Assembly (NCBI GenBank): GCA_038243585.1
Contig: JBBSQY010000002.1
Coordinates: 86,857 to 150,856 of the forward strand
Reading direction: 5' to 3'
Origin: Candidatus Sumerlaeales bacterium
GTDB taxonomy: Bacteria > Sumerlaeota > Sumerlaeia > Sumerlaeales > Sumerlaeaceae
Length of the DNA stretch: 64,000 bases
Positions 3,203-24,500 of this stretch are shown here, one piece after another. The position numbers and the translations under genes were made by a program. Positions within the stretch are counted from its first letter, which is position 1. The number at the start of each line of letters is the position of its first letter. Under the pieces are notes generated by a model. The model saw only the letters and a list, made by a program, of their open reading frames with translations, made no database searches and was not told where the DNA came from.

Positions 3203-3338
3203 GGGAAAAGGTGGATCCTCCAGCAGGGTTCCAAGGTTTCATTTGAGTTTGTGAGAGTGGTTTAGAAACGTTAATGAACGGGATTTGCCGGCGGAAGTAT
3301 CGCAGGTCAATATTTAGTTCGAAAATTAAGTACCTAAC

Positions 3339-4565: not shown

Positions 4566-4671
4566 GGGGAAGGTCTCATTCCACGGATTATTACGGGATC
4601 TTGTTAATAAAATGCAGCAGTTAAAGCGAAAGGAATTCTGATTTGATCAGCGATGGAAAAAACTGATTGAG

Positions 4672-7131: not shown

Positions 7132-7160
7132 ATCGCGCCGGGCCATAGCCGATTAATAAT

Positions 7161-7193
7161 AAAAGGGCTGAGAAACTTTCGTCTCTCAACCCT
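7161..7193 (-). terminator. Intrinsic terminator downstream of the sulfatase gene
   Basis: Minus-strand 13-bp stem AGGGTTGAGAGAC-GAAA-GTTTCTCAGCCCT followed by a T-rich tail. Confidence 0.7.
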
Positions 7194-8902: not shown

Positions 8903-9676
8903 TTGGAGGGTACAACTATAACAACCATGCCAGCTAACCTGACTTCGACATCACATCGACCCTACCCGCTCCCGGCGGGACGTCCGGTTATGGAAATGAA
9001 CTGGCACGATCTGATGTTTGCCCATTGGCCGCTTCCGGCGGAGGCTTTAAAAAGCCTGGTTCCCCCCGGTCTATCTATCGATGTTTTTGAGGGACAGGCC
9101 TGGATTGGCATAGTTCCGTTTTCTATGTCGGGCGTGCGACGGTGGCCGTTTCCTCCTATGCCGGGAGTTTCGCTATTCCCGGAGATTAACGTCCGCACCT
9201 ATGTGACCGATGGCGATAAGCCAGGCGTGTATTTTTTCAGCCTTGATGCCGCCAGCCTTTTTGCGGTAAAGGTTGCCCGGGCATGGTACCATTTGCCCTA
9301 CTACCATTCAAGGATCACTTCCAGGCGCGACGGTGATACGATCACCTACAGCGCATCCCGCCGCATAAAAACAGGCCAGATGCCAGTGCAATACGAAGGT
9401 GCCTACCGCGCCATCGGCCCCCCAAATTGCGGAGGCTGCGGTAAGCTTGCTCACTGGCTTACAGAACGGTACTGTTTATACAGCGTAAGTCCGCGCGGGC
9501 ATGTCTATCGTGCAGATATACACCATGACATGTGGCCGCTGCAGCTGGCAGAGGCTGAGATTCGGCTAAACAGTATGGTCGCTCCGTTAGGCCTCGTTCT
9601 ACCCAGCGCTCCACCCCTCCTTCATTTTTCCAAACGCCTGGACGTAGTCGCGTGGCAACCGGTAAGGGTAAGTTAA
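8903..9676 (+). CDS. YqjF/DUF2071 family protein
   Basis: WHDLMFAHWP, FPEINVRTYV, PGVYFFSLDA and WLTERYCLY motifs. Confidence 0.9.
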   Translation: MEGTTITTMPANLTSTSHRPYPLPAGRPVMEMNWHDLMFAHWPLPAEALKSLVPPGLSIDVFEGQAWIGIVPFSMSGVRRWPFPPMPGVSLFPEINVRTYVTDGDKPGVYFFSLDAASLFAVKVARAWYHLPYYHSRITSRRDGDTITYSASRRIKTGQMPVQYEGAYRAIGPPNCGGCGKLAHWLTERYCLYSVSPRGHVYRADIHHDMWPLQLAEAEIRLNSMVAPLGLVLPSAPPLLHFSKRLDVVAWQPVRVS

Positions 9677-9807
9677 GCCGAATCTTAGAGTATTGAGAAA
9701 ATAATACTACAAGGTTCTACAGCGCGGGATGACTTGACAGAAAACAATTTGCACTTGAGACGCTAATATACAAAAGCCTATAGTCTAAACCTTACTGGAG
9801 AGCCGCA

Positions 9808-10701
9808 ATGGATTTAATCCGCACTACGCGAGGCGCACTGATTTTTACAGCACTGGCTGTGATGACTCCACTATGGGGACAAACCCCGGATGAAATCGAA
9901 AAAATAGAAAAGGCTATGCCGGCGACTGCAAGGGTAACGCCAGAGAAGCCGCGGCGGGTACTGGTTTTCAGCCAGGCTTTGAAGTTCAAGCACGCCAGCA
10001 TACCTTATGGTGAAAAAGCCTTCCAGATAATGGGAGAAAAGACCGGAGCATTTAAGGCAGATATATCACGCGATGGGGCAGAGCTGACGCCGGAAAACCT
10101 CGCACAATACGACGCCATTATTATAAATAATACCACCGGCGATTTTATTACAACACCAAGCCTGCGGCAGGGGCTGCTGGACTTCGTGAGCAGTGGCAAA
10201 GGAATTGTCGGTATTCATGCGGCCAGCGACAGCAACTTTTCATGGGAGGAATATGGAGAACTGATTGGCGGATTTTTCGTGAACCACCCGTGGACCTCTA
10301 AGACAAAGGTAACTCTTAAAATTGAAAACCCGGATCATCCTGTCAATCAGGCATTTAAGGGACCGTCGTTCGAGGTAACAGACGAGATCTATCAGTTCCG
10401 AGAGCCATATTCTCGGGAAAAACTGCTCGTACTTGCGAGCCTGGATACCGAAAAAACGGATATGCAGAAGAAAGGGATCGAACGCACAGACAATGACTTC
10501 GCCGTTAGCTGGGTGCGCGAATGGGGCGATGGTCGCATTTTTTACTGCTCGCTTGGCCACAATCCTGAAATATTTTGGAATCAGACGGTGCTGCTGCATT
10601 ACTTGGATGGGATACAGTTTGCCTTAGGAGATCTGAAGGCTACTGCGTCAGCGTCTGATAACAGTAGCACGCAGACCGTTGCAATGCCGCGATCCAATTA
10701 A
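9808..10701 (+). CDS. ThuA-like domain protein
   Basis: FKHASIP, GIVGIHAASD, DEIY and GRIFYCSLGH motifs; signal peptide. Confidence 0.88.
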   Translation: MDLIRTTRGALIFTALAVMTPLWGQTPDEIEKIEKAMPATARVTPEKPRRVLVFSQALKFKHASIPYGEKAFQIMGEKTGAFKADISRDGAELTPENLAQYDAIIINNTTGDFITTPSLRQGLLDFVSSGKGIVGIHAASDSNFSWEEYGELIGGFFVNHPWTSKTKVTLKIENPDHPVNQAFKGPSFEVTDEIYQFREPYSREKLLVLASLDTEKTDMQKKGIERTDNDFAVSWVREWGDGRIFYCSLGHNPEIFWNQTVLLHYLDGIQFALGDLKATASASDNSSTQTVAMPRSN

Positions 10702-12488: not shown

Positions 12489-12560
12489 GCCATACGCATA
12501 ACTTTATATTATACGTGCTGTGGCTAATAATGAATCGAGGTTAATCTGGTTCAGCGCCTC

Positions 12561-13097
12561 TTAGCTGCGAACCATTGAACTTAATGTGGATAAGCTGCTT
12601 TTTTCAGGAGCGTTAGATATGACTGAGAATGTACCGTCAGTTTCTAAGACGACCCCTTCTGCTTCTGTAGACGCCGAGCCACTATTTCGGAGAGCGGACA
12701 GAATTTCAGCCTCCGTTATACGGGCGCGCCGCATGTTACCTCGCAAATACTCGCCTTGATACATTAACAATGTCGGTTCCGATTTTACTAATTTCTCGAA
12801 CTGCGGAAATCTGACAGAAAGCCACGAAACAACAAACTGAAGAGAAGCCAACAGCAAAAATGCCAGGATTCCCTCTAGAATCGCAACATCTTTAGATAGC
12901 ACGATAGTAGCCAAAGTAGAGCCTAGGGCGACCGTTACCACAAGATCGAAAGCGTTCATTTTAGAAAGCGTTCGTTTTCCAAAGGTACGCAACACAGTGA
13001 CTAGTGCAACGTAGCTTACAGATCCAGCAATCAAAACACGAAGCAGTCCATACCATGAATCAAAAAGCATACTTGGCAGCGAATCAGGTAACTCCAT
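12561..13097 (-). CDS. DUF421/YetF family membrane protein
   Basis: GKRTLSKMNAFDLVVTVALGS and VVLETDGTFSVI motifs. Confidence 0.9.
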   Translation of the reverse strand: MELPDSLPSMLFDSWYGLLRVLIAGSVSYVALVTVLRTFGKRTLSKMNAFDLVVTVALGSTLATIVLSKDVAILEGILAFLLLASLQFVVSWLSVRFPQFEKLVKSEPTLLMYQGEYLRGNMRRARITEAEILSALRNSGSASTEAEGVVLETDGTFSVISNAPEKSSLSTLSSMVRS

Positions 13098-13197
13098 ATT
13101 GCGATGTCTCCTTCTGATCGAGCAGCTTCGGGCCTATGCAAAGGAACAGTAACGCGTCTGGTAAGGCTGTAAACTATTGATCTCAATGGGTTTGAAT

Positions 13198-13221
13198 TTG
13201 GTAGCGACGAGTGGAGTTGAA
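13198..13221. repeat. att core, distal copy (duplicated tRNA-Met 3' end)
   Basis: TTGGTAGCGACGAGTGGAGTTGAA is identical to 23725..23748; the match extends to 27 of 28 bp. Confidence 0.95.
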
Positions 13222-13331
13222 GGATTCGTCGTGGTATTGATACCATTAGACATACGCCCTATATATGGCTACTACACTCAATTTACATCCAATCTATTAT
13301 AGTAGTAGTATCAAACAAATTCCCTTCTATA

Positions 13332-13387
13332 GCCACATATACGCCTTAGAGACTTTACCCTATTTACCCTGTTTACCCTGTTCTAAA
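13332..13387. repeat. Left subterminal inverted repeat with 3x TTTACCCTR 9-mers
   Basis: GCCACATATACGCCTTAGAGAC-TTTACCCTA-TTTACCCTG-TTTACCCTG-TTCTAAA; an inverted near-copy lies at 23530..23586. Confidence 0.85.
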
Positions 13388-14529
13388 AACAATGCCAGCC
13401 GGTTAATGACGACGCGCCTTAGCCGGTCCGGATCCATAAGCTCCGCATAATGCTTATCTGTCATCCCTGCCGGTGCATGGCCTATATAAGCGCCATAGTC
13501 TGACAATGCGACGTCGGCCTTTACGCATAGGTTAACGAATGTTTTTCTAACGTCCTTCGGATCCATGTCGGCGTATGCGGGAATGTCGAAATCCGCCGCC
13601 ACGCTATTGAGTAGCCGGCGCAGGCTTAATCCAACGCTGTGGTGGGTCGCGTCAAATCCCTCGGTGTTCGTGACTACCAGCGCCTCAGGGGCCATCCTAG
13701 ACAGCTCAGCGGCCATCCATGCAGAGACTGCCGGCAGGATAGGAATGGATCGCGCACGATACTTGTTTTTCGACAGCTTAATGGATAGCATATTGCTTGT
13801 GAAATCGAAGTCGCCGACGCGCAGGCGGATAATTTCTTTAATGTTACACCCTACCAAACAGCCTAGAACAACAGCCCGTGGGATCGCACGGTTGACGCGC
13901 ATATTAGCGCATCCCCATAAAAGCGCCACCTGGTCAGCGTTTATGTAGTTTTTCTCCGGTGTGGATTCATCGGTTAAAAATCCGCTCTGGATTACCAGGG
14001 GATAGTACCGGCGCGGATCTGATCGTGCCTGGTTCTTTGCCGTCATAGTCAGAACGCCGATGTAGTGCCGTATGCTCTTTGGCTTTAATCCCTGGTCATG
14101 TAGAAATTTGACATAATCCTGTGCTACCGCGCCCGTGACTTTTTCCCAATATGATATGTTGGGGCCATCACCTTCTAACCAGTTTATGAAGTATTTTTCA
14201 AACCTGCGAAGATCCGCACGACGGTCATCTGTTTTGGCTCTGGCGTGCGTAATGGCTTTTCTGATAGCGTCGCCGATTAGGTCGCCGTCCATCCGGTCCA
14301 TAACATGAGAAAAGCGGGAGCCTAGAATGTCCCTAAGCTCCCGCGCCATCTTCTTCACTTCATCCGGCAGGGTAATTCCTGCCAGTTGCTTTTCCGTCTC
14401 CGCTTTTATGCCGGTGCTCTTCGACAGCCGTTTACCGGCAGTATCACGATAAACTAAATAGTAGCGCTTATCACTACTCTGGATCCTTATAGTAACGGCT
14501 CCGATTTTTTCCACTGTTCGCAGGGTCAT
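13360..14529 (-). CDS. Tyrosine recombinase/integrase
   Basis: N-terminal arm-binding-like YYLVYRDTAGKRLSKSTG; box I-like GCNIKEIIRLRVGDFD; SKNKYRARSIP; DVRKTF; IGH...MTDKHY with the catalytic Tyr; adjacent to att. Confidence 0.88.
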   Translation of the reverse strand: MTLRTVEKIGAVTIRIQSSDKRYYLVYRDTAGKRLSKSTGIKAETEKQLAGITLPDEVKKMARELRDILGSRFSHVMDRMDGDLIGDAIRKAITHARAKTDDRRADLRRFEKYFINWLEGDGPNISYWEKVTGAVAQDYVKFLHDQGLKPKSIRHYIGVLTMTAKNQARSDPRRYYPLVIQSGFLTDESTPEKNYINADQVALLWGCANMRVNRAIPRAVVLGCLVGCNIKEIIRLRVGDFDFTSNMLSIKLSKNKYRARSIPILPAVSAWMAAELSRMAPEALVVTNTEGFDATHHSVGLSLRRLLNSVAADFDIPAYADMDPKDVRKTFVNLCVKADVALSDYGAYIGHAPAGMTDKHYAELMDPDRLRRVVINRLALFLEQGKQGK

Positions 14530-14761
14530 GCTTTTTTTGTTTCATCCTGACTGGTTTTAAGTCAATACTGGTTTTGGGATGGAGCAGGCTTTCCACTCTC
14601 TGCCGGCCTATTTCGTCCAAATAGTGAATGATGGTCCCGCCCCAATACCTGCCCCGAATGGTAGCCAGGGGCGCACATTCGTCAGCGAGTTTGCGGCCTA
14701 GCATTATTTCGAGCTCAGCAGCGCCATACCAGCGGTATGGGCGAATGATAGGTTTAAGCAT
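14474..14761 (-). CDS. Small hypothetical protein, possible excisionase/DNA-binding protein
   Basis: Overlaps both the primase stop and the integrase start; WYGAAELEIMLG resembles the start of an HTH. Confidence 0.55.
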   Translation of the reverse strand: MLKPIIRPYRWYGAAELEIMLGRKLADECAPLATIRGRYWGGTIIHYLDEIGRQRVESLLHPKTSIDLKPVRMKQKKHDPANSGKNRSRYYKDPE

Positions 14762-17267
14762 GATTCACCGCCTGGGGGTTCATGTGGTACACTCTGGCAG
14801 GCTTCTTTGCCCCTGGTGATAGAATCTCCGCTTTGCGCAGGATGTGGCGCTCTTCAAGGTAGGAAAGCGCCTCGCTGAATATGCTTTCGTTTTTCATGCG
14901 CTTCTTTACCCGGTCCCACAAATCCGTGTGGCGGATGGGTGATTCTCCGGTACTGCCGGCAAGGTTGCGGATGTGCCTAAGTGCATATTTAGCATTCGAC
15001 TGGACCGGGAGCTCCTTCACGATGCCGAGCACCTGGTCCGCACGATACAGAAAATATGTTCCCAGCGTAATCGCGCTTTTCATCGTGTCAGCCGATATGG
15101 TCCGCCCTGCGTAATCGATGGGGAATTCTGCTACGTGCAGACACGCCGCCAGGCGAAGGATCCTGCCGGCATGTTTAGCGCCCCACTGTGCAATGTCCTC
15201 TTCGCCGAAGTCACCCGTATCTGGGCAAAGTTTAGGCATGAAGTCTTGTCTGAAAGTACGAAATTCAGCAGCAGCGCCATCACTGAGTTTTAGGACTACA
15301 CCATCGTTCGTATCATTTAGCAGGTGCGTAATTGTTTTAAGGTATTTCTGTTTTATCGCCTCATCGATGGGGGGCGCATCTACTTTATAATTTGCAAAGT
15401 CAATGCTGCCACGCAGAAGGATATAACGCTGGATTACGCCGAGCCCTGTAAATGTGTCCTGGTTTATAACGCCGTCAAATGGCTTCGGTTGCACAAACTG
15501 CACGACAGATAAAAGTGGCGCTTCAAGTGTTTCATTCCCACCTGAAACGCGGTCCCGGACGTGCCTCTCTCCGTCATAGCATTTGGGAAATAATGTGCAT
15601 GAGCTTTGCCCGTTGCTATACATCCCACCCATCACGTTAAACAGTTTGGAAGACTCAGCAGAAATAACGATCCCGCTTTCCCTGTTTTGCTTTTCGCCTA
15701 ATGGCTTGAATAGTGATTCTTCGGTGAAATCCTCATATATAAGCCGCCTTGCATTCCGAGCCGGTAGGGCGTCCAATTCCGTTTCAAGGTCCGTGAGCTC
15801 CATTGCCAGCATTTTACGATCCGCAGAAGTGGACGCCTTATTTACTTTTCGCACAACAGCCGCCTGCCGTGCGACAATTATCTTTTCTTCGTTGCCGGCA
15901 AGGATCCGCTCTTGTCTGGATTCGAGCTCATTCTGTTTTCCCCAAAGAACGGCAGGTTCTGAAATGGCTTCCAATGTCGCTGATTTTGTAGCGCCTGGGG
16001 GAAAGATTACCATCACCCATAAGTTTGTGTTTTCCTGCCAGTTTGTTTTGCCTTCAATTATCACACGCCGCTGGATCGTAGACGATAACATCCCCAACGC
16101 AATGGTCGCGGTTACTTCTACCGGCACGTTCTGTTGAACAGCCAGCTCCGCGGCGAAATCTCTTAACCAGGGTGAACCGTCGAATGACTGTAAGGGGAAC
16201 GTCTCCGCGTCTTCGCCAAACATCTCACCCGGCGCTACCTGGTCAATGGATATCAGCTCCGGCCATTCCTCGACCTGGGCAACCGCCGGCTCCCATAGAA
16301 CAGCTACCTTTAGGCGCTCATCATAACTCATTCCTGCCGGCTCTGGGTCGGCCAGGTCTTGGCCTTTTTCCATGCCATCGGTCGGCATGATCCGCACCCG
16401 CGTATTCATCTCATAAAGGTGTGCGGCTAGTCCGTCCATCGCATCAGTGCCAGGCTCGTCAGCATCAGGAATTAAGAAGCCTTCAGAGTTCGCCAGTAGG
16501 CGCCAGTCTGTTTTGTTCCATGTTCCGGCGCTACCTTGCCAGGTGAGTATTAACAGATCAGGCCAGCGCTCCTGTGCGGCCTCCATTGTCTTGTGCCCTT
16601 CACATATTGCCCACGGCCTGGTATCTCCAGCAGCAATCTTGTCAGCCCCATAGAACGGCTTATTGTCCAGGCTACCGTGAAAGTGCCAGCCAGCTTTATA
16701 TTTTCTGCCTTCGTGGGTGTGTTCTGTGTCGTAGTAGTAGCACGGTCTGAATTGCTTACGGTCAAACACTGGGGGATTGTCCCATCGGTAGTCATAATTG
16801 AACAGCGTGCCATCAGAATTTAAGAGGGTGTAGACGTGATCCGGCTTGCCTAATTTGTAAGCTTCTTTTGGCGGTGCAATATCTTCCGGCGGGTTACGAT
16901 TTATGTTGCATATATCTGCCGGCAGGGGTGTAGTTTTGGTAATCCTTGTCGGGATACTTTTAGGTTTTGCCTCGGTTCGCGCCGGGGCAATTTCTTTTTT
17001 TGGGGGGCTTGTGTTTGTCGCTGTGTTCATCCGGTGGTTGCCTCTCAAATCGTCTCTGAAGTGGTCTGCTATTTCTTTGGTGGGGCATTTCATGGTAGTG
17101 CACTTGAACATCACATCCCCAGACTTCGCGCTATCCCATACCAGGCAGTTTAAGCCGCTGCCCTTATGGATGGGGCAATTGATCCTGTAGCAGCCTTTAG
17201 CGTCCGGTCTGGTAGATCGTGCGCTGCCGTTGCCGTACCTGTCGGCAATGTCTGCCGCGTTCATCAT
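14754..17267 (-). CDS. Primase (Zn-finger + Toprim) fused to a DUF3987/YfjI-like domain
   Basis: CPIH...FKC zinc-binding motif; Toprim ICEGHK...PDADEPG...KGQDLAD; C-terminal NLWVMVIFPPGATKS, DFTEESL, YDGE...RDR and GRILRLAACLH typical of DUF3987. Confidence 0.88.
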   Translation of the reverse strand: MMNAADIADRYGNGSARSTRPDAKGCYRINCPIHKGSGLNCLVWDSAKSGDVMFKCTTMKCPTKEIADHFRDDLRGNHRMNTATNTSPPKKEIAPARTEAKPKSIPTRITKTTPLPADICNINRNPPEDIAPPKEAYKLGKPDHVYTLLNSDGTLFNYDYRWDNPPVFDRKQFRPCYYYDTEHTHEGRKYKAGWHFHGSLDNKPFYGADKIAAGDTRPWAICEGHKTMEAAQERWPDLLILTWQGSAGTWNKTDWRLLANSEGFLIPDADEPGTDAMDGLAAHLYEMNTRVRIMPTDGMEKGQDLADPEPAGMSYDERLKVAVLWEPAVAQVEEWPELISIDQVAPGEMFGEDAETFPLQSFDGSPWLRDFAAELAVQQNVPVEVTATIALGMLSSTIQRRVIIEGKTNWQENTNLWVMVIFPPGATKSATLEAISEPAVLWGKQNELESRQERILAGNEEKIIVARQAAVVRKVNKASTSADRKMLAMELTDLETELDALPARNARRLIYEDFTEESLFKPLGEKQNRESGIVISAESSKLFNVMGGMYSNGQSSCTLFPKCYDGERHVRDRVSGGNETLEAPLLSVVQFVQPKPFDGVINQDTFTGLGVIQRYILLRGSIDFANYKVDAPPIDEAIKQKYLKTITHLLNDTNDGVVLKLSDGAAAEFRTFRQDFMPKLCPDTGDFGEEDIAQWGAKHAGRILRLAACLHVAEFPIDYAGRTISADTMKSAITLGTYFLYRADQVLGIVKELPVQSNAKYALRHIRNLAGSTGESPIRHTDLWDRVKKRMKNESIFSEALSYLEERHILRKAEILSPGAKKPARVYHMNPQAVNHA

Positions 17268-17494
17268 TTCTTTTCCTCAATTCTGTAATGCCCGCCGCTG
17301 TGATTCCAGCAGTGTGATAATCGGTGGTCGGGGTCGGTGAATTCCGGCTTCGTCCCGGTGCCGCCGCCGTGTCGGTGTGGCTCTCGGCAGTAGGGGCATT
17401 GTCCTATCAGCAGCCACATACTGCTGTAACGTGACCACTCAGCCCGGCAGTAGAATACCGGCAGTTGTTCCTCGGTGTCGATGGTGGTGGTCAT
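17264..17494 (-). CDS. Small Cys/His zinc-binding protein
   Basis: CPYCREPHRHG...HRLSHC; ATGA-coupled to its neighbours. Confidence 0.65.
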   Translation of the reverse strand: MTTTIDTEEQLPVFYCRAEWSRYSSMWLLIGQCPYCREPHRHGGGTGTKPEFTDPDHRLSHCWNHSGGHYRIEEKK

Positions 17495-17703
17495 CGTTCG
17501 CCACCGCCCAAACCGACAGATCCGCGACGCAGGCCCCAGCGCTCCAAGGCTTTTTCCAGTGAATCAGCATCGACGCGCCGCCGGATGCGGAAAACTGGAT
17601 AATCTGGAACAGTGTTATTATGATAATCTGCCCAGTGATGAAAGGCGTTTGGACTACTGAAACCGGCAAGTTTTGCCGCCGACGTGATGGAGATCAATTT
17701 CAT
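17491..17703 (-). CDS. Small HTH-like DNA-binding protein (paralog of 17700..17918)
   Basis: MKLISITSAAKLAG excisionase/AlpA-like start; 4-bp overlaps with both neighbours. Confidence 0.7.
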   Translation of the reverse strand: MKLISITSAAKLAGFSSPNAFHHWADYHNNTVPDYPVFRIRRRVDADSLEKALERWGLRRGSVGLGGGER

Positions 17704-17918
17704 TTGGTCGCCTCCCGCTTGCCTTGCTTTGCTGCCGAACGTGCATGTGCTTTCCGAATGATCGCCGCCTCGATAGAATCCAAATCGACCCGGTTACCAC
17801 ATCTCAAAATTGGATGTGCTGGAAAATCTGCCTCGTACCGGCCAAGCCAGTTGTTAAACGAGTTCTTGCTTACATGACCCGTAAAAGCCATTGCCGCGTC
17901 TAATGAAACGAAACGCAT
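17700..17918 (-). CDS. Small HTH-like DNA-binding protein (paralog of 17491..17703)
   Basis: ATG at 17918 preceded by a GGAGG RBS; aligns end to end with the downstream ORF. Confidence 0.7.
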   Translation of the reverse strand: MRFVSLDAAMAFTGHVSKNSFNNWLGRYEADFPAHPILRCGNRVDLDSIEAAIIRKAHARSAAKQGKREATK

Positions 17919-18029
17919 TATGCTGCCTCCTGTGTAACTGAAAATTAGTTTCAACCCGCATTAACGACAGTCGGCTACAGGTGGGCGCAAAATAGTTGAA
18001 ATAGTTGTGGTGGGTCGCCCGGCGGGATG

Positions 18030-18059
18030 AAAAAAGCCCCCCGGCGCTTGCCAGGGGGC
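18030..18059 (-). terminator. Intrinsic terminator inside the element, upstream of the replication operon
   Basis: Minus strand GCCCCCTGGC-AAGC-GCCGGGGGGC-TTTTTT, 5 nt after the stop at 18065. Confidence 0.8.
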
Positions 18060-18064
18060 AGTGG

Positions 18065-18280
18065 TTAAAGCGCCTCGACTTCATCCGCCACGGCTCTGAG
18101 TTTATCCGGCAGGTGATCAGCCAGGTGCCGGGCTTCCTCAATGCAAAGCCAGGTAACTTCACCGCGGACTTCCAGGGCAACCAAAGGGATTCCCCCACGG
18201 TACTCGACATAAACTTCAATCCCGTGATCTTTGAAAACATCTTCGCCGGTGAAAACAGGTCGCGTGGTGGTGGCGGTCAT
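18065..18280 (-). CDS. Hypothetical protein (71 aa)
   Basis: ATGA overlap with the upstream ORF; followed by a terminator. Confidence 0.6.
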   Translation of the reverse strand: MTATTTRPVFTGEDVFKDHGIEVYVEYRGGIPLVALEVRGEVTWLCIEEARHLADHLPDKLRAVADEVEAL

Positions 18281-18612
18281 AGCGCTACCGCTGTGAAAAA
18301 CAGATCGGCATCAGCGTCGCGCTTCTCTATGTCATCGCGAAATTCGCACATTGATTTCAATGCGGTATCACGTCCGCTAACTACGGCATTATAGTAGTCG
18401 CTTAAGTCTTCCGAATCCATCAGCGGAATTCTAATCTGGCGAAACAGATCATACAGAATCGTGGCAATGGGTGCAAACTTTGCCAGCATCTGCTCTTTTT
18501 CTTCCCGTGAAAAAACTGCTGAATCTATCACGATAAACTCAGGACGTCCGAAATCAATCTGACTTTCGTTCTCTCTGTGGGTAACGGGGTTTGTTGCGTT
18601 AATCGTGGACAT
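18277..18612 (-). CDS. Hypothetical protein (111 aa, acidic)
   Basis: ATG with an AAAGG RBS; coupled to the downstream ORF. Confidence 0.6.
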   Translation of the reverse strand: MSTINATNPVTHRENESQIDFGRPEFIVIDSAVFSREEKEQMLAKFAPIATILYDLFRQIRIPLMDSEDLSDYYNAVVSGRDTALKSMCEFRDDIEKRDADADLFFTAVAL

Positions 18613-18853
18613 AAAAAAATCAACCTTTCGATACTTCGTGGTTGACGGAGACTGACACGCACCTTCAGGAATGCGTATAGGTCATTCGGTGTGCAATCAC
18701 CGTCTTGACTCAGGCCCTGGGTTGCGCTGAACACGCTTCCTGGGGCCGCTTATTTATCCGGCATGGTCTTACTGCCGGGCGTTGGCAAGAGAAATCGACA
18801 TCACGGCGCGATTCCAGCCACTCTGAGCCACTTTAGCAGTTGCCTGCGTGTGT

Positions 18854-18979
18854 TTGCACCGTCGGCACATGAACGAAAGCCAGCGGGCAATGATTGGCGC
18901 GAAGATCGCCAATATGGTGCGGGGTGAAAATCAGCATACGCAAATTTGCGGAACCATATCCCAATCCGACGCCGCTGAA
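18854..18979 (+). pseudogene. Fragment resembling phage ParB-like/HTH proteins
   Basis: Translates as LHRRHMNESQRAMIGAKIANMVRGENQHTQICGTISQSDAAE, matching the NLHRRHLxxSQRAM...SQxxAA pattern; no N-terminal domain is present. Confidence 0.55.
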
Positions 18980-18981
18980 CA

Positions 18982-20475
18982 TCATATCCCCATCACTTCA
19001 TGACCTGGATTCCGTTCATTCAGCGTGAAGTTAATCGTGGATTCCTGCCCGGCGCGTCCGGTATTGGCCCGGTTGGCGGCTTGCGTCGCGTGAATATCCT
19101 CATTCGACATCCCGCCTCCCTGCAACGCACCAGCACCGAATTTTGCAACCATGTCAGCCTGTAGCTTTTTATCTTTCGTGGCATCCATCGCCGTTTTACC
19201 ATGCGCCCTTAACCAGTTGTCCACGACGGCATTTGTGGAAATAGCTGTCTGGTTCATCGGGTTGGCGCGGTCGCTGTCGGCCGGGTACCGCGCCGTTGTC
19301 TTCGCATCATGAGCCGCTACCTTGTCACGGTAGCCCGTTTCATTCGCAGCAAATCCAGCCGCTTTTTCGCGCGCTTTTGCAGCCATCTCATCCGCGCCGA
19401 ATAAGTCATAGACATTAGCCGCAAGATTCTCCGACTTGCCCATAACACTATTATTAAACGCCCCGGCTTTGTTGTCCAGGTTCTTAATGTCACCGGCTTT
19501 TTCAGACATCGAGGAAACCAGCGCCGCAGCATTTACAGCAGCGGTGCCCAGGAAGTCAGAAAACGCCTTCGCGTCTTGCCCCATCTCTGCCCAATCAATG
19601 CTTTTGATCGTGCCGAACAGGTCTTTGGCGCTGTCTGCAATGTTCTCTCCAAATGCTTTGGTAAACTCGTCAACACCCATCTTCGCGTCACCGCTGATAT
19701 ACTGCACGAAGTCCACCAATTCGCCTTTAATGACATCAAACAAGGGAGCCGTCGACGCCTGCTTCATGTTATCGAAGAATGATCCCGCCGTGCTGGATAG
19801 CCCTTCCCATGTCGACGCCATCTGCATAACCAGTTCAGGCCCCGCGCCCATTTGTTTCAGTGCAGCATTGATCAGCTCCATACCCTCGAGGCCCTGGGCT
19901 TTTAATTCTTTTATAACACTACGAGATATATCAAACCGGCTTTGTAAACTTACATAGTCCCCGCCCATAGCCTCACGGATAGAGAATGCAGCACCTTCAA
20001 GCCCCTGCGCCGGATTAAGCGCCGCCAGAACTTCCGCAGTCTTAACCAACTTCATCAGCTCTTCGCGTGAACCCTTCGCGCTGGAAATCAGCGCTTTGCC
20101 CGCTGTGATCATCTCGCCGGTGTCGAACGGCGTAACGTCAGCTTCCGTGCGAAGATCCATTACAATCTGTTTTGCAAGCGCCGCGTCCTTCGTAAACGCT
20201 GTAAACGTCGCTGTGGCCTGCTCAATCGAACTGTTGAGCGCCAACCCATCTTTCACCATGGAACCAAACGCGACACCCGTAGCAGCCGCCGCAACACCCG
20301 CAGCAACGCCCATCCCGGCCAGAACCTTCGCAGCCGGTGCAAACGCTTTCGCCACAGCCCGGCCTTCAGTCATTGCGTTATTCTTAAACCGGGTGAAACC
20401 TGTTTGCGCGCTCACTATACCCGCGCGAAATTCGGCGGCGTCTAATTTAACTTTTGCTGTGACTTCTGCGCTCAT
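18982..20475 (-). CDS. Short tail tape-measure-like protein (497 aa)
   Basis: Ala/Gly-rich and helical; N-terminal VTAKVKLDAAEF; tape-measure domain pattern IEQATATFTAF...ADVTPFDTGEM...ASTWEGLSST; GAAAGG RBS. Confidence 0.75.
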   Translation of the reverse strand: MSAEVTAKVKLDAAEFRAGIVSAQTGFTRFKNNAMTEGRAVAKAFAPAAKVLAGMGVAAGVAAAATGVAFGSMVKDGLALNSSIEQATATFTAFTKDAALAKQIVMDLRTEADVTPFDTGEMITAGKALISSAKGSREELMKLVKTAEVLAALNPAQGLEGAAFSIREAMGGDYVSLQSRFDISRSVIKELKAQGLEGMELINAALKQMGAGPELVMQMASTWEGLSSTAGSFFDNMKQASTAPLFDVIKGELVDFVQYISGDAKMGVDEFTKAFGENIADSAKDLFGTIKSIDWAEMGQDAKAFSDFLGTAAVNAAALVSSMSEKAGDIKNLDNKAGAFNNSVMGKSENLAANVYDLFGADEMAAKAREKAAGFAANETGYRDKVAAHDAKTTARYPADSDRANPMNQTAISTNAVVDNWLRAHGKTAMDATKDKKLQADMVAKFGAGALQGGGMSNEDIHATQAANRANTGRAGQESTINFTLNERNPGHEVMGI

Positions 20476-20490
20476 AACGAATTACCTTTC

Positions 20491-20531
20491 AAAATAAAAA
20501 TGCCGCCTGGGGCAGAGGGATCCCAGGCGGC
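20491..20531 (-). terminator. Intrinsic terminator immediately upstream of the tape-measure-like gene
   Basis: 10-bp stem GCCGCCTGGG/CCCAGGCGGC followed on the minus strand by ATTTTTATTTT. Confidence 0.65.
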
Positions 20532-20640
20532 GATTCGCGGGGAAACGAGCGTAAACCCGCGAAGATAAAATAAGTTGGACGACGGCTAACCCTCGCCGAT
20601 TAGCCGCCGCCCGCTCTTGACGGTTTCCCATCAAACTTTG

Positions 20641-20820
20641 TTACCGCCTGCGTACCAGGTCAGCCAATGGATCAGGCGACCTTGCATTGTCCTGGACGCG
20701 CTGGGTGTCGATATCCGTGCCCGCGCCCAACGAGGATAAACTCGAAAATCGCTGGACAGGTTCCGCCGATTCGTCATCAGCAGGTTTTGGCTCTTCTATG
20801 TCTTGGTAAAAATCTCTCAT
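20641..20820 (-). CDS. 59-aa acidic peptide (not in the ORF track)
   Basis: ATG at 20820 with a GGAAAG RBS, TAA at 20641; MRDFYQDIEEPKPADDESAEPVQRFSSLSSLGAGTDIDTQRVQDNARSPDPLADLVRRR. Confidence 0.55.
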   Translation of the reverse strand: MRDFYQDIEEPKPADDESAEPVQRFSSLSSLGAGTDIDTQRVQDNARSPDPLADLVRRR

Positions 20821-20988
20821 AATTTAATCTTTCCGAGTAGACGGACGCCTCTTCCAAGACGCCCGCCCAACCCTATTTCGGAGCTATGGACGCAACGACA
20901 ACGGCCATATTTTGACCGCCGGGCTACGCGGTTGAAGGTGTGCCCGGCGGCCTGATTCGTTCGCAGCAGGCAAGCGAATCAAACGTGA

Positions 20989-21999
20989 TTACGGAGTCTC
21001 ATCAGCGCTTATAAGGATAGAAGCCGGATAGCGGTCAGCCTCTAACGGCTGTGCCACTGTGACCGGGTTCGCCGTACAAAAGCCAATTCGCGCGACCGCT
21101 TTAATTGCGATAGAGTCAGCTTGCATGAGATTCAGCATAATGTTTCCCGCCAAATCTTGGATCACGCCATCTTTGTGAACGCTGATATGGAGTTCCTCAC
21201 GGACGCCCACCAGGTGTTTTGTGCGGTCGAACATGATCATTTCAATGTCGGACGCGTCGGGGTTCTGTGGCGGGAAAACTCCGTCGACCCCGAAGGAAAT
21301 TTCACGACCAAACAACCGGCCTTCCAGTGCCTCGCCGCTCTGAAGTTCCTCGGGAATGAAAAGCGGGCGTCCGAGCGTATCGGTTTCCGACATTAAATCG
21401 TACTCGAACCCCGGCCTAGCGATAGCGCCATTTAACTGGAAACCATCCCGGCGCGACATCTTTAGCACGTTCATAATGTCCGTGCGTAGACCACCATTAG
21501 CCGCCGCCGTGTCGATAACCGTCACGTTACCGGCGCTCATCGCACCAGCAGCAACATGAGCCGGCCAGACAATCGGCTTTTCAATTCCGAAGAAAATTGC
21601 CTTATCAATTGCCATCGCGATACTCTGGGCAATCGCCGGAATTATTTCTTCCGTGAGATTGATCCCTCCAGCCTGAATGTCAGACATCAGCCGGCGCGGA
21701 AATGGTATGATGACGGCAATGTCGGCCACGTTCATGTCAATATTGGCCCATGATACATCGCTCGTCTGGATAAGCCGGGTATCATCTTCAGGTGTGCCGG
21801 TTTGGGTTAGCCAATAAGATTTCGGCAGCGCCGTCATAACCGGGAAAGATTTGTTCTGCGTCAAAATTGGAACGTGCTTGAAGAACCGCAATGCGGCCGA
21901 CTGTTGCGTCGCCATCTTGAAAATTTTGTTGGAATGTTCGCATGGAACAAGGCCACCGGCAGAGGTTGCGTTGCGGTCTGTGATATCGTTGAAAGCCAT
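20989..21999 (-). CDS. Phage major capsid protein (HK97 fold)
   Basis: GGLVP..S.KI, IAVIIP, IA.AIDKAIFFG, DTLGRPLF, LFGREI and NLMQADSIAIKAVARIGF patterns; AAGGAG RBS. Confidence 0.88.
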   Translation of the reverse strand: MAFNDITDRNATSAGGLVPCEHSNKIFKMATQQSAALRFFKHVPILTQNKSFPVMTALPKSYWLTQTGTPEDDTRLIQTSDVSWANIDMNVADIAVIIPFPRRLMSDIQAGGINLTEEIIPAIAQSIAMAIDKAIFFGIEKPIVWPAHVAAGAMSAGNVTVIDTAAANGGLRTDIMNVLKMSRRDGFQLNGAIARPGFEYDLMSETDTLGRPLFIPEELQSGEALEGRLFGREISFGVDGVFPPQNPDASDIEMIMFDRTKHLVGVREELHISVHKDGVIQDLAGNIMLNLMQADSIAIKAVARIGFCTANPVTVAQPLEADRYPASILISADETP

Positions 22000-22090
22000 G
22001 AAAGTGGCTCCTTAATAGGGAGATCGCGGGAGGAATGGAATAGCCTATCAGTTACCTGTCAGCCATGACGTTTCAACCGCGTCGCCTTTA

Positions 22091-22609
22091 TTAACGACAG
22101 CTTGCTTCCAGGTCGCTCCCAATAATCCGATTTTGCATCATATCTGATAGTATTTCCGGCTGTGCAAATAAAGCCGTCCCGAAATCCTGTAGGCTTGCGA
22201 AAAGAGCACCCTCACGACGCCACGCACGACGCCGCATTTTCAGAATATCCATCGCCTTATTTTTCGCGGATCCGAGAAAAAACGAATTCACGCTGCCGCT
22301 AAATTCAAACCCGGCAACCGGTAACCCGGTTCGCGGATTGAGACGCCGGCATTGTTTAGGTTTTGCGCTCTCGAGTAGGTGCATCAAAATTTCATTTCGT
22401 GCGTCGTCTTGATCCTCCTGCGACAGTGAAACCTTGTACGCCCATTGCTTCGCCAGTGGTAGCAGCAGGGCCGCAACGTCAGCCAGCAGGAATTCATTCT
22501 CTGGATCCCGCCGCAGCGCCACAATAGCGGCCTCCAGGTCAATGGCCTGTTGTGCGAAATCAATCACTGCGTGATGGCTACGGGGAGCGCAAACAGCAGG
22601 CATAAGCAA
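22091..22609 (-). CDS. Sigma-70 region-2-like protein lacking region 4
   Basis: LLPLAKQWAYKV...EDQDDARNEILMHL...SVNSFFLGSAKNKAMDILKMRRR resembles ECF sigma region 2. Confidence 0.6.
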   Translation of the reverse strand: MLMPAVCAPRSHHAVIDFAQQAIDLEAAIVALRRDPENEFLLADVAALLLPLAKQWAYKVSLSQEDQDDARNEILMHLLESAKPKQCRRLNPRTGLPVAGFEFSGSVNSFFLGSAKNKAMDILKMRRRAWRREGALFASLQDFGTALFAQPEILSDMMQNRIIGSDLEASCR

Positions 22610-22684
22610 ATCCTTTCTTGTGTAAATGCTTACCCGTACCCGCCGCTTTCATGCAAGGTGAATCCGACAGTCAAGAGAAAAAAA

Positions 22685-23290
22685 TTATGCTTTCACCGGC
22701 GGGGCATCGCCCATCTTTTCAGGCATATAGTCGCTGAAGTCCATCGTATCGCCGACGCATCCAGTTTCTACCCACTCCCTGGGCGGCAAACCAACATGGA
22801 CGAACGTGATCGGGGTCTCCGTGTCATCCTTCGCCACAAGTTCCTGGTAGGCCTGAAAATCTTTGCTCAGCCGTTGGTCATAACTAATCCGGGCCTCGAG
22901 TAGCTTCCGTTTTTCCGATGTGTAAAAGCGCTTATCCGCCATTGTCTCAGCATCAGCCAGGCATTGATCAAGACGAAGGGCCTCCACATCCAGCGCCACA
23001 AGCGTGTTTTCGTGCCGATCCAGCATGAAAGCCAGCCGCGCCTTGCCACTGGATAGACTCTCAGCCAGGTTCACCGGATCGCCCTCGGCAATAGCCAGAA
23101 CAATCGCCGGTGTATGCGAATGTACCCTTGCCGTAGTCTTACCCACCGGCGGCTCATCGCCACGAACCCGCGCACGGTACCGCCGTTTACTGTCAGCCCG
23201 GCATTTCTTGCAATCGCCCGCAGCATAACGCTCTGAGGTGCCACACTTCGCGCAAATCTTGTCATTATCCATGCCAGGTATTAACGCCAT
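22685..23290 (-). CDS. Zn-finger (CxxC...CxxC) coiled-coil protein, possibly terminase small subunit-like
   Basis: CAKC...CKKC N-terminus, helical middle and a terminal beta-strand-like PITFVHVG; first gene of the structural block. The function is inferred from position only. Confidence 0.5.
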   Translation of the reverse strand: MALIPGMDNDKICAKCGTSERYAAGDCKKCRADSKRRYRARVRGDEPPVGKTTARVHSHTPAIVLAIAEGDPVNLAESLSSGKARLAFMLDRHENTLVALDVEALRLDQCLADAETMADKRFYTSEKRKLLEARISYDQRLSKDFQAYQELVAKDDTETPITFVHVGLPPREWVETGCVGDTMDFSDYMPEKMGDAPPVKA

Positions 23291-23529
23291 TCGTACCCAC
23301 CGGCCACGCTGTACCCATGATTTTCACAAAAAGCCAAAAATCTCCCGTTTCAGTGCTAGCGAGCATTGGCCTATACCAGCTACAGGGGTGCCCCGGCCTT
23401 GTAATAGTTACAACCGTTGTGTGGTGCCCTGTGGCGGCTGTGGTGGTGGTGCTACTCGGATCAGTGCCACGCGGTGCGGTGTGTTGTGTGTGTGGTGGTG
23501 CGCCGGCAGTGGTGGTTGACGTGCGTTGG

Positions 23530-23586
23530 TTTAGCAATAGGGTAAATAGGGTAAACAGGGGAACTCTCTTAAAGCGTATATGTGAC
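23530..23586. repeat. Right subterminal inverted repeat with YAGGGTAAA 9-mers
   Basis: The reverse complement GTCACATATACGCTTTAAGAGAGTTCCCCTGTTTACCCTATTTACCCTATTGCTAAA aligns with 13332..13387. Confidence 0.85.
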
Positions 23587-23724
23587 ATCACCACATACGC
23601 CCTACACCCAGTTTACACCCAGTTGTTCGTGGTGTGGTGGGTGTATCTTGCCTGTACCTTCAATGTGGTTAAAGTGGTTATCGCTTGATATAGCTGGGGA
23701 TCAGGTAGTTGGGTGATAGGGAAA

Positions 23725-23748
23725 TTGGTAGCGACGAGTGGAGTTGAA
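23725..23748. repeat. att core, copy within the intact tRNA-Met
   Basis: Identical to 13198..13221. Confidence 0.95.
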
Positions 23749-23802
23749 CCACTGACCTAAGGGTTATGAGTCCTTCGCTCTAACCACCTGAGCTACGCCG
23801 CC
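23726..23802 (-). tRNA. tRNA-Met(CAT), probably elongator (Ile2 not fully excluded)
   Basis: GGCGGCGTAGCTCAGGTGGTTAGAGCGAAGGACTCATAACCCTTAGGTCAGTGGTTCAACTCCACTCGTCGCTACCA; cloverleaf, CAT anticodon, encoded CCA. Confidence 0.93.
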
Positions 23803-23852
23803 CCGTGGTTTGAAGTACGGTTCTGCACTTCAAAACATTCTTGCAAAAAAAG

Positions 23853-23928
<76 letters not shown>

Positions 23929-24092
23929 TCATTTTGCAGCCGCACTGTTCCGGTTGCAGGCTCATTTTACCGGAGGCGTTTGGTTTTCTTCAAAGATTAG
24001 CAATATTGGTTTTTGGATTTTCAGATTTCGGCTTTTGATCCACGTCTATCAGCAAAATCCAGTTCTTATGTCATTGTTTTCCAGTATAGTAT

Positions 24093-24500
24093 TTACTTTC
24101 GACGGGTCCTTCCGGGGGAAGCTGAGGTGGAGGTTTCTGTAAGGATTGGCGAGGTTTCCAGCATTGGTACGGCGGGTGATGTTTTTGACTCGTTCTCAAA
24201 AAGCATCACCTTTTCTCCAGGTCTGTGCATTTGGAGGCGTTCCCGAATTTGTTTTTCGCTTTCCACCCCATTGAACATTAAGCTCTGCTGTTGACGCCTC
24301 AACTGTGCGATGCGTTGCTTGGTTTTGGCTATCTCTAACTGAGCCTTTTCCCGGTTCCGATGAGTCTCAGAAAACTCATGCAGGTTTTCGCGGTTTATCA
24401 CAAACCAGAGCCCTGCAGCTACAAGAGTAAATACCACTGCAAACAGAAAATAACCTCGGGATTTAGGCGGCGCGGGATTGTGCTGATACCTTTTCTGCAT
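24093..24500 (-). CDS. Septum formation initiator (FtsB/DivIC family)
   Basis: One TM helix, a coiled coil and EKQIRERLQMHRPGEK. Confidence 0.8.
   Translation of the reverse strand: MQKRYQHNPAPPKSRGYFLFAVVFTLVAAGLWFVINRENLHEFSETHRNREKAQLEIAKTKQRIAQLRRQQQSLMFNGVESEKQIRERLQMHRPGEKVMLFENESKTSPAVPMLETSPILTETSTSASPGRTRRK

Follow-up and report, generated by a model that had tools for sequence, protein, structure and literature searches.

The closest described counterparts of the locus analyzed here are the attachment sites of lambda, P4 and KplE1/HK620. In lambda, attP combines arm-type sites for Int, named P1, P2 and P'1-3 and described by a consensus, with sites for Xis, IHF and Fis, and the lambda record shows three units in tandem that extend into the stop codon of int (CDS 27812-28882; repeat positions L242 386-415). 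In the P4 GenBank record, tandem 12-nt attP arm sequence repeats flank the core in both orientations (3915-3965 and 4151-4174), one of them overlapping int; these arm repeats are separate from the ori/crr iterons (TGTTCACC/A), which lie on one side of attP. For KplE1, one study describes an Int N-terminal domain that binds arm-type sites, and an attL in which P' sites and sites for the recombination directionality factor (RDF) are interleaved (PMC2951348).

Here, we analyzed a window of 64,000 nucleotides (the whole stretch of DNA considered), which holds an integrated element of 10.5 kb (13194-23748) inserted into the 3' end of a tRNA-Met gene (Table 1). Its attachment region resembles lambda attP in carrying short repeats of mixed orientation on both sides of the core, on arms that are split into attL and attR by integration, and the full-length model of the element integrase suggests a separate N-terminal domain like that of lambda Int. 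It differs from lambda in that the repeats reach further out (up to ~180 nt) and one class has a 9-nt period, in its four composite box-plus-repeat modules, in having two candidate HTH partners where lambda has one Xis, and in an integrase whose sequence retrieved none of the solved structures (0 matches, E up to 1). P4 and the element are both ~10-12 kb long, lie in a tRNA gene and include int, a primase-helicase and an Xis-like HTH protein. However, by BLASTP neither int nor alpha of P4 resembles the element proteins (best E 0.42 and 0.89), and a second array that could serve as an origin was not identified in the element. With the attL of KplE1/HK620, the locus shares two kinds of short sites (there, IntS P' arm-type and TorI RDF sites) interleaved beside a tRNA-derived core; in KplE1, however, the arm overlaps the int promoter, whereas here int reads towards one arm, with the operon downstream of the other (PMC2951348).

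Based on their position, the predicted integrase fold and the comparison with relatives, we read the two arrays as Int/Xis arm sites. Specifically, we estimate a probability of roughly 0.8 that they are the attP arms, i.e., grouped sites to which the recombination proteins would bind when they assemble the intasome. This favors what a first-pass annotation of this DNA had offered as its alternative, Int or Xis binding arrays, over its main proposal of an origin assembled by excision.

Limits and contents of the integrated element

A direct repeat of 28 nt (27/28 matching, 24 nt exact) forms the att core; its sequence is that of the 3' end of tRNA-Met(cat). The element limits rest on this repeat and on the tRNA, because the empty-site check in relatives, made with the left flank DNA and a 531-aa flank protein, gave no match in 5 genomes. 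Contigs from one DNA run gave no usable junction; their sole joint, from 13070 to 23726, has a shorter side of 22 nt and does not fit the att core. An Rfam scan returned no family besides tRNAs, and the single-strand folding of the arrays was not unusual (z +0.88 and -0.93). On the arm-site reading, the arrays would mark a complete attL/attR pair that is probably mobile, in a lineage about which little is known.

Judged by its profile matches, the HK97-type capsid gene gives the element a satellite- or phage-like character. Short repeats are common in the pac and cos recognition regions of phages and, with a capsid protein encoded by the element, the arrays might be conceived as recognition sites for terminase or its small subunit that are complete only in the circle or in a concatemer. 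We consider such a packaging signal extremely improbable, since no terminase small subunit was recognized among the element proteins, and since the repeats track the integrase in relatives, some of which had no capsid gene among the ORFs scanned.

Table 1 Features of the integrated element and its tRNA target (window coordinates).
Feature	Position	Strand	Evidence and remarks
att core copy, integrase end	13194-13221	.	Duplicates tRNA-Met 3' end; direct repeat
Module M1 (P' arm)	13250-13294	+	Box ACATACGCC 13250-13258, then 11-mers TACACTCAATT and TACATCCAATC 13273-13294
Module M2 (P' arm)	13334-13380	+	Box CACATATACGC 13334-13344, then three 9-mers TTTACCCTR 13354-13380
Tyrosine integrase P0001, 389 aa	13360-14529	-	PF00589, phrog_1, AF2 model
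Primase-helicase P0002, 837 aa, DUF3987 helicase domain	14754-17267	-	PF13148 E 3.9e-62; phrog_2373, phrog_239
orf70	17491-17703	-	Small protein, paralogue of orf84
orf84	17700-17954	-	Small protein, paralogue of orf70
Major capsid protein, HK97 type	20989-21999	-	PF05065 E 1.6e-11; phrog_10 E 4.5e-27
Module M3 (P arm), inverted copy of M2	23538-23584	-	9-mers, then box CACATATACGC 23574-23584
Module M4 (P arm)	23592-23624	+	Box CACATACGCCC 23592-23602, followed by TACACCCAGTT twice 23603-23624
att core, second copy	23721-23748	-	Overlaps 3' end of intact tRNA-Met(cat); direct repeat
tRNA-Met(cat)	23726-23802	-	ARAGORN; Rfam tRNA

Paired repeat modules around the att core

Just inside both element ends, a repeat search found a 62-nt inverted repeat (13334-13395 and 23523-23584; 74% complementary), whose arms lie 10127 nt apart and carry CACATATACGC and three 9-mers TTTACCCTR. 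This bears out the first-pass annotation, which had described ~55-bp inverted near-copies ~10.1 kb apart, each with a box and about three tandem 9-mers, that would come to lie ~270 bp apart and symmetric about the core once excised. By our count, the inner array edges would be 136 + 28 + 112 = 276 nt apart in the excised circle, in a roughly symmetric arrangement. All three 9-mers are exact in M2, while in M3 two are exact (23538-23546 and 23547-23555) and the third matches at 7/9 positions (23556-23564); the box CACATATACGC is exact in both, and with up to one mismatch it is not enriched (5 matches vs 3.66 expected). The M2 array (TRF period 9, 3.2 copies) lies 132-159 nt from the core and includes the int stop codon (13360-13362), and the M3 9-mers lie 156-182 nt from the core. 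Overall, the 64-kb window contains TTTACCCTR five times without mismatch, always within the two arrays (13354, 13363 and 13372 on the forward strand; 23538 and 23547 on the reverse strand), against 0.72 expected and with 0/100 shuffles reaching 5. Among the matches listed for the 3.43-Mb assembly, at least two copies close together occur only at these two arrays.

A second pair of modules, overlooked by the earlier annotation, is directly oriented and consists of ACATACGCC and two 11-mers TACAYYCARTT (13250-13294 and 23592-23624). M1 begins 28 nt from the core and has the same orientation as M4, which ends 96 nt from the core and has ACATACGCC at 23593 and a perfect tandem array (TRF period 11, 2.0 copies, 100% match). 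M1 and M2 are separated by an AT-rich stretch, and the boxes of M3 and M4 stand back to back as a near-palindrome (23574-23602). Each arm is made of two composite modules, i.e., a box CACATA(TA)CGCY combined with tandem 9-mers or 11-mers, and in both arms the two repeat classes stay within ~180 nt of the core and are absent elsewhere in the element. The longest word common to both arms is 17 nt, compared to at most 11 nt in 65 control windows.

Since all genes run leftward from the right arm, a promoter must be near M3 and M4, and the boxes (above all 23574-23602) and repeats could be operators through which HTH proteins or Int regulate the leftward operon and int, with no essential role in recombination. 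The near-palindrome formed by the two right-arm boxes is consistent with this, as is the use of arm and RDF sites as operators of the int promoter in KplE1 (PMC2951348). However, the same modules also occur at the far end, downstream of int, where a promoter is unexpected, and a simple sigma-70 scan of 23300-23720, which may not suit this organism, found no promoter-like site. Regulation and recombination are moreover compatible, the same KplE1 sites doing both (PMC2951348), and we consider it quite unlikely that the modules are purely transcriptional.

The first-pass annotation had instead proposed that the 9-mer arrays are primase-helicase iterons, which would form a working origin only once they are ~270 bp apart around the core after excision. 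Short tandem repeats in both orientations, spaced 9-11 nt, indeed recall P4 type-1 iterons, the AT-rich stretch between M1 and M2 would suit an origin, and a tandem-repeat search found no convincing second iteron array inside the element. GTGGTG repeats are present in 23290-23530, and intergenic regions span 18612-18982 and 20475-20989. TGTTTACC occurs once per array and agrees with TGTTCACC at 7/8 positions, but its 2 copies against 1.51 expected amount to chance, and TGTTCACC itself has no copy in the element and its sole copy in the window at 3735. In P4, furthermore, all iterons are on the same side of attP and are kept together on integration. In the literature searched (titles and abstract openings), we met no description of an origin split by integration, although one may still be in print. 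We found the proposal unsupported and regard an origin divided between the two arrays as very unlikely.

A predicted two-specificity integrase and its candidate partners

The integrase P0001 scores just under the curated cut-off of PF00589 (E 9.9e-6; 25.9 bits vs 27.1) and matches phrog_1 with E 9e-22. Across a 30-sequence alignment, R260 is invariant and H351 nearly invariant. In the full-length AF2 model (pLDDT 91), residues 4-42 form four strands and residues 56-70 a helix, both blocks with pLDDT 87-95, and its structural matches include Tn1549 Int (Z 17.8; 266 residues, rmsd 2.9) and lambda Int (Z 16). With full-length lambda Int chains, the alignment covers 308-312 residues and starts with model residue 5-6 on lambda residue 9-10, while N-truncated lambda Int(75-356) chains align over 250-252 residues only, i.e., ~57-60 fewer. 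The predicted arm-binding fold rests on the full-length model and these alignment ranges, because modeling of the isolated N-domain yielded nothing usable (pLDDT 51); no Pfam arm-domain family was matched in the integrase. From this modeling, the protein is probably a lambda-type, two-specificity tyrosine integrase with a predicted beta-sheet-plus-helix N-terminal domain.

Searches among 1.84 billion representative proteins returned 253 matches to the integrase at E up to 1e-3, and by this count it belongs to a rare, divergent clade. Only 2 close homologues, 60% identical, were found in a 5.8-billion-cluster search. The C-terminal residues EQGKQGK of P0001 are encoded by the M2 9-mer array, and these two homologues end ...GKKGKQG... 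and ...IG*, which would be what AGGGTAAA repeats encode in other frames. No close integrase relatives were obtained from viral_contigs or genome_contigs with the single protein, nor from metagenome_contigs, genome_contigs or viral_contigs with integrase alignments, and single-protein genome searches matched only the window's own genome (1/13 genomes of the family, 1/73 of the class).

Candidate partners are encoded by orf70 and orf84, which match each other with 33-34% identity (tblastn E 1.7e-8 and 6e-10) and for which no Pfam family was found. Atlas leads, obtained for orf70 only, name HTH, putative excisionase (DUF1233), HTH_17 and Phage_Cox with scores of 0.90-0.92, and we treat both proteins as candidate Xis/Cox-type HTH accessory factors. 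P0002 offers little to the idea that the arrays are P4-like iterons: beyond its lack of BLASTP similarity to P4 alpha, its Pfam search returned DUF3987 only, with no D5_N or Pox_D5, unlike the D5_N + Pox_D5 primase-helicase of the relative L228. No relatives of P0002 were found in viral_contigs.

If the arrays are attP arms, the catalytic and core-binding domains of the integrase would act on the 24-28-nt core, while its N-terminal beta-sheet domain would bind the short arm-type repeats that flank the core at distances of 30-180 nt. As to which protein binds which repeat class, we infer, as a best guess, that the Int N-domain would read one class, likeliest the 9-mers overlapping its own stop codon, and that orf70 and/or orf84, as directionality or bending factors, would recognize either the boxes or the remaining repeat class. 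Integration would then part the arms by 10.1 kb into attL and attR and excision would reunite them, most likely as a normal consequence of site-specific recombination and not as a licensing device. Understood in this way, the arrays would be a standard feature of lambda-type site-specific recombination and add little beyond that. The arm sites of this rare integrase clade would at the same time be readable directly from sequence, and the four box-plus-repeat modules with two paralogous small HTH proteins would provide a tractable system for the study of directionality.

Putative arm repeats across the integrase family

A paralogous integrase in the same genome, on contig C75, is 42% identical over the half of the protein covered. 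Downstream of its int stop lie, in this order, a 9-nt-period array of five units, two 11-mers and a tRNA 3' fragment, i.e., the arm layout of the element described here with different repeat sequences; a search of the assembly did not reveal the opposite end of the C75 element. Retention of this layout beside the paralogue's own int is better accounted for by arm sites than by a divided origin.

Pattern scans for the 9-mer array gave 96 metagenome and 93 viral stretches, many of which we assume to be coding repeats of the G-K-x type. Among 190 pattern-scan records, an integrase match was found only in the window's own genome and a primase match in one, L044, a metagenome contig on which three AGGGTAAAT units lie ~420 nt downstream of a distant DUF3987 helicase (21% identical). 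This combination speaks for replication iterons, but it is a single match among the pattern-scan loci searched (190 records) and may be a coincidence. Because L044 carries the same 9-mer array and no other iteron array was found in the element, a combined function is kept alive, in which the arms assemble the intasome and the DUF3987 primase-helicase, through its winged-helix-like C-terminus (about residues 760-837), would also recognize the 9-mers, giving an origin only on the excised circle and no replication in situ. We assign this combined function a very small probability; if true, it would link replication and excision in a novel manner.

Relatives of the integrase provide a broader comparison. 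Near the Int C-terminus, 9/20 relatives have a tandem repeat that is exact over at least 7 nt and spaced by 9-12 nt, compared to 12.7% of 2034 control windows, for windows that had been shifted after the motif positions had been seen. The pre-set first windows gave a weaker signal (6/20 relatives vs 9.7% of controls); with such windows, the C6 locus of the window's own genome was also not above its controls. Across nine loci, the best repeat (at least 6 nt) begins -16 to +27 nt from the anchor. Distant relatives have mostly direct 10-11-nt repeats, from which the 9-nt period and inverted 9-mers of the present element differ.

A comparison with related elements had been suggested by the first-pass annotation, and analogous arm repeats were indeed present there: the arms share a motif in all four relatives for which both ends were found (L228, L222, L225 and C6). 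The shared arm word was above all controls for L228, L222 and C6 (41, 47 and 51 controls, respectively) and was reached by 1/95 controls for L225. L229 was excluded from this comparison for its direct repeat of at least 60 nt in coding-like sequence ~230 nt past the stop, which we rejected as an att core and which looks like a duplication.

The motif C(T/C)GGCA is common to L222, which has PrimPol-DUF3987, L235, which has a D5-type helicase, L225, in which no primase was found, and C6, which has HTH_36 only. Identity among the Ints of L222, L235 and L225 is 37-48%, and the C6 Int shares 36-39% identity with those three. L228, with its D5-type primase-helicase, has ACTTACA in place of C(T/C)GGCA. 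By these comparisons, the arm motif goes with the integrase clade and not with the replicase, across elements with PrimPol-DUF3987, D5-type or no detected replication proteins, which argues against iterons dedicated to a particular primase-helicase. At a finer level, the N-domains of three ACTTACA elements are 43-45% identical to each other and no nearer than to L233 (43-47%), whose motif differs, so that motif and integrase N-domain show no clean co-variation in the sequences compared. An arm motif that tracks the integrase clade across replication modules would cleanly illustrate how satellite-like elements exchange modules.

Architecture of the element arms

A 28-nt direct repeat, matching the 3′ end of a tRNA-Met(cat) gene, delimits the 10.5-kb insertion that encloses the two repeat arrays, and every long ORF of the insertion reads leftward (see table). 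This tRNA gene belongs to a tandem pair whose starts lie 127 nt apart and whose sequences are 73% alike over 66 nt; only the first gene serves as att site. The first-pass annotation had described two inverted near-copy arrays with tandem 9-mers, ~10.1 kb apart when integrated and ~270 bp apart in the excised circle, and both the structure and the distances held: the inverted repeat spans 62 nt at 74% complementarity with its arms 10127 nt apart, and the inner edges of the arrays, counted from the sequence, lie 136 + 28 + 112 = 276 nt apart in the circle. Each arm of the inverted repeat carries an exact CACATATACGC, separated by a 9-nt spacer from tandem 9-mers TTTACCCTR. All five exact 9-mer copies in the 64-kb window fall inside the two arrays (0.72 expected; 0/100 shuffles reached 5), with a third unit of the right array matching at 7/9, and among the matches listed for the 3.43-Mb assembly closely spaced copies occurred only in these arrays. 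Since the left array contains the integrase stop codon, the last integrase residues, EQGKQGK, are repeat-encoded.

A second pair of related modules, absent from the first-pass annotation, consists of a box, ACATACGCC, and two 11-mers TACAYYCARTT in each arm, in identical orientation. Overall, each arm holds two composite modules, in tandem on the left (M1, M2) and back to back on the right (M3, M4), where the boxes form a near-palindrome; all four box-pattern matches within 12500-24500 are in the arms. Elsewhere in the element, the adjacent paralogues orf70 and orf84 (33–34% identical) share an Xis/AlpA-like sequence pattern; neither matched a Pfam or PHROG family, and Atlas returned excisionase, Cox or HTH_17 for orf70 at 0.90–0.92, i.e., at lead level only.

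Coordinates of features in the element and in related loci
Feature	Sequence	Position	Strand or direction	Remarks
Direct repeat, left	window	13194-13221		27/28 to right copy
M1	window	13250-13294	+	box at 13250; 11-mers 13273-13294
M2	window	13334-13380	+	CACATATACGC at 13334-13344 (+)
Inverted repeat, left	window	13334-13395		
Tyrosine integrase (P0001)	window	13360-14529	leftward	stop codon 13360-13362
95-aa protein	window		leftward	
DUF3987 primase-helicase (P0002)	window	14754-17267	leftward	
orf70 and orf84	window	17491-17954		
Several small proteins	window		leftward	
497-aa protein	window		leftward	
HK97-type capsid protein	window	20989-21999	leftward	
201-aa and 172-aa proteins	window		leftward	
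GTGGTG-rich stretch	window	23421-23639		
Inverted repeat, right	window	23523-23584		
M3	window	23538-23584	-	CACATATACGC at 23574-23584 (-)
M3/M4 boxes	window	23574-23602		
M4	window	23592-23624	+	box at 23593; 11-mers 23603-23624 (TRF period 11, 100% match)
Direct repeat, right	window	23721-23748		
tRNA-Met(cat)	window	23726-23802	-	
tRNA-Met(cat) pair	window	23726-23928		
C75 9-nt-period array	L002	1419-1375	-	five units
C75 11-mers	L002	1327-1306		two units
C75 tRNA 3′ fragment	L002	1255-1231		
C6 element	L241	11543-19895		8.3 kb, tRNA-Leu(caa)
L228 element	G040:C9	about 262-7175		6.9 kb, tRNA-Arg
DUF3987 helicase contig	L044	2-2056		metagenome

The integrase and its relatives

Judged from its homologues, P0001 is a member of a rare, divergent integrase clade: a word-indexed search of 5.8 billion clusters returned only two close homologues (60% and 59% identical), and among 1.84 billion representatives HMMER found 253 matches at E ≤ 1e-3, of which 10 reached E ≤ 1e-30. 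The C-termini of these two homologues (...ERGKKGKQGN... and ...YLIG*) appear to be exactly what AGGGTAAA repeats would encode in the two other frames. A sequence search of solved structures returned no match for P0001. Its AF2 model from a 30-sequence alignment (mean pLDDT 91) aligned over residues 82–355 with Tn1549 Int (Z 17.8, rmsd 2.9, 266 aligned) and lambda Int(75-356) (Z 16.0, 252 aligned), while full-length lambda Int chains aligned over 308–312 residues, from model residue 5–6 (lambda residue 9–10) onward. Because the 57–60 residues thus gained coincide with four strands (4–42) and a helix (56–70) of the model, the model points to a lambda-type arm-binding domain at the N-terminus. 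Two results weaken this reading: the search of Pfam arm-domain models gave no match, and the N-domain folded alone reached a pLDDT of 51.

An integrase-family profile matched 61 of 75 phylum genomes at E ≤ 1e-20, the weakest being ordinary Xer-like recombinases. We inspected the DNA 3′ of the integrase gene in 21 of 30 returned loci (L192-L210, L215, L216), and in many of these two or three tandem units of 10–11 nt sit right at the gene end, 40–100 nt ahead of a tRNA gene or fragment, with a motif that varies by element (ACTTACA, CTGGCA, TGCAGC, AATGGCACG, AAATGCA, TTGCAAC). Scoring exact matches of ≥7 nt at 9–12-nt spacing, 6 of 20 relatives had a tandem repeat in a window on the stop codon vs 9.7% of 2662 control windows. 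With the window on the conserved-domain end, picked after C-terminal tails had been noticed in some clades, the figures were 9 of 20 vs 12.7% of 2034 (binomial tail 4e-4, the relatives being kin and not independent); there, the best repeat (≥6 nt) begins −16 to +27 nt from the anchor in nine loci.

Two further members of this integrase family occur in the same assembly, on contigs C6 and C75. The C75 integrase (42% identical to P0001 over half of the sequence) belongs to an element broken off by the contig end and adjoining a tRNA 3′ fragment; its gene is followed by a 9-nt-period array, two 11-mers and then this fragment, i.e., the layout of the left arm studied here with different repeat sequences. 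The C6 element has 42-nt att repeats.

Association of arm motifs with integrase or replicase

The far-end direct repeat was located in 5 of 20 relatives; L229 was left out of the arm comparison as its direct repeat looked like a coding duplication. The two arms shared a motif in all four remaining relatives. The longest common word reached 15 nt in L228, 11 nt in L222 and 18 nt in C6 (equaled by 0/41, 0/47 and 0/51 controls, respectively); that of L225 (9 nt) was not exceptional (37/95), and its shared 7-mers were equaled by 1/95. A narrower window, used at first, did not lift C6 above its controls and gave 4/95 for L225. The shared motif lies in direct orientation, with additional inverted copies in L222.

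Cargo varies among elements: a Toprim/D5_N/DUF5906/Pox_D5 primase-helicase with a small terminase in L228, a PrimPol-DUF3987 protein in L222, a D5-type helicase in L235 (32% identity with the L228 protein), only an HTH_36 protein in C6, and a tape-measure protein with no primase found in L225. Motif C(T/C)GGCA is common to L222, L235, L225 and C6; the first three have integrases that are mutual nearest relatives (37–48% identical), with the C6 integrase 36–39% identical to them. L228 carries ACTTACA despite sharing its replicase type with L235, and P0002 matches only 2 of 20 relative loci. By this distribution, the arm repeats move together with the integrase module rather than the replication module. 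A finer test gave no clean answer: the N-domains of three ACTTACA elements (43–45% identical to one another) were at least as similar to that of an element with a different motif. The L228 element, with its P4-alpha-type primase and integrase of the P0001 family, resembles a satellite of the P4 or PICI type, here within this phylum.

Known attachment sites and a putative role of the arrays

The P4 GenBank record is the most telling comparison. Flanking the core (4078-4097) on either side, it places "attP arm sequence repeats" at 3915-3965, 4151-4174 and 3621-3632, in both orientations and with one overlapping int, and separately annotates type-1 iterons in crr (4291-4590) and ori (9086-9809), all of them on the same side. 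Both repeat types therefore occur in P4, and it is the arm repeats that flank its core. The first-pass annotation had favored a P4-like origin split by integration and joined by excision. Two observations speak for it: no second convincing iteron array was found in the element, and L044, the only pattern-scan contig among 190 records to match the primase (through a distantly related DUF3987 helicase, with 21% identity at E 2e-7), carries three AGGGTAAAT units ~420 nt downstream of the helicase, a resemblance due perhaps to chance, perhaps to a DNA word in common. However, BLASTP detected no similarity between P0002 and P4 alpha (best E 0.89), the P4 iteron TGTTCACC is absent from the element, and its 7-of-8 variant TGTTTACC, one per array, is near expectation (2 vs 1.51), so that a split origin is not supported. 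That the arrays serve both the intasome and a primase-helicase origin on the circle seems very improbable.

L044 is AT-rich, with TTTTTACCCC-like words after the helicase stop codon and, past the next small ORF, an inverted TTACCCTAA beside the AGGGTAAAT units.

The alternative in the same annotation, arrays bound by Int or Xis, is supported by repeats that follow the integrase module and by the P4 precedent. In the lambda record, regions bound by Int are annotated in each arm, and three tandem units (L242 386-415), which we take to be P′1-P′3, extend into the int stop codon (413-415). The element Int has no BLASTP similarity to P4 Int (best E 0.42). The KplE1 study describes a two-specificity integrase, with arm-type and RDF sites that are interleaved in attL (PMC2951348).

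We propose that the arms act as protein-binding scaffolds of attP, on which Int would bridge core and arm sites through two DNA-binding parts. The tandem 9-mers at the 3′ end of int, together with the inverted copy in the opposite arm, are the likeliest candidates for Int arm-type sites; boxes and/or 11-mers may be sites for orf70 and orf84. Integration would part the arms and excision reunite them, as is usual for any such system. The right arm is also situated upstream of the entire leftward operon, so that its sites may have a second role in transcriptional regulation, as is known from KplE1; searching this arm with a simple sigma-70 model returned nothing.

The back-to-back M3/M4 boxes, GCGTATATGTG and CACATACGC, lie 7 nt apart and form an operator-like near-palindrome ~285–310 nt upstream of the first gene's start. 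GTGGTG constitutes a third, strand-specific repeat family: 9 of its 22 plus-strand copies in the window fall in a 220-nt G+T-rich stretch that flanks M3 and M4 on both sides, a candidate control region, origin or site of single-strand initiation.
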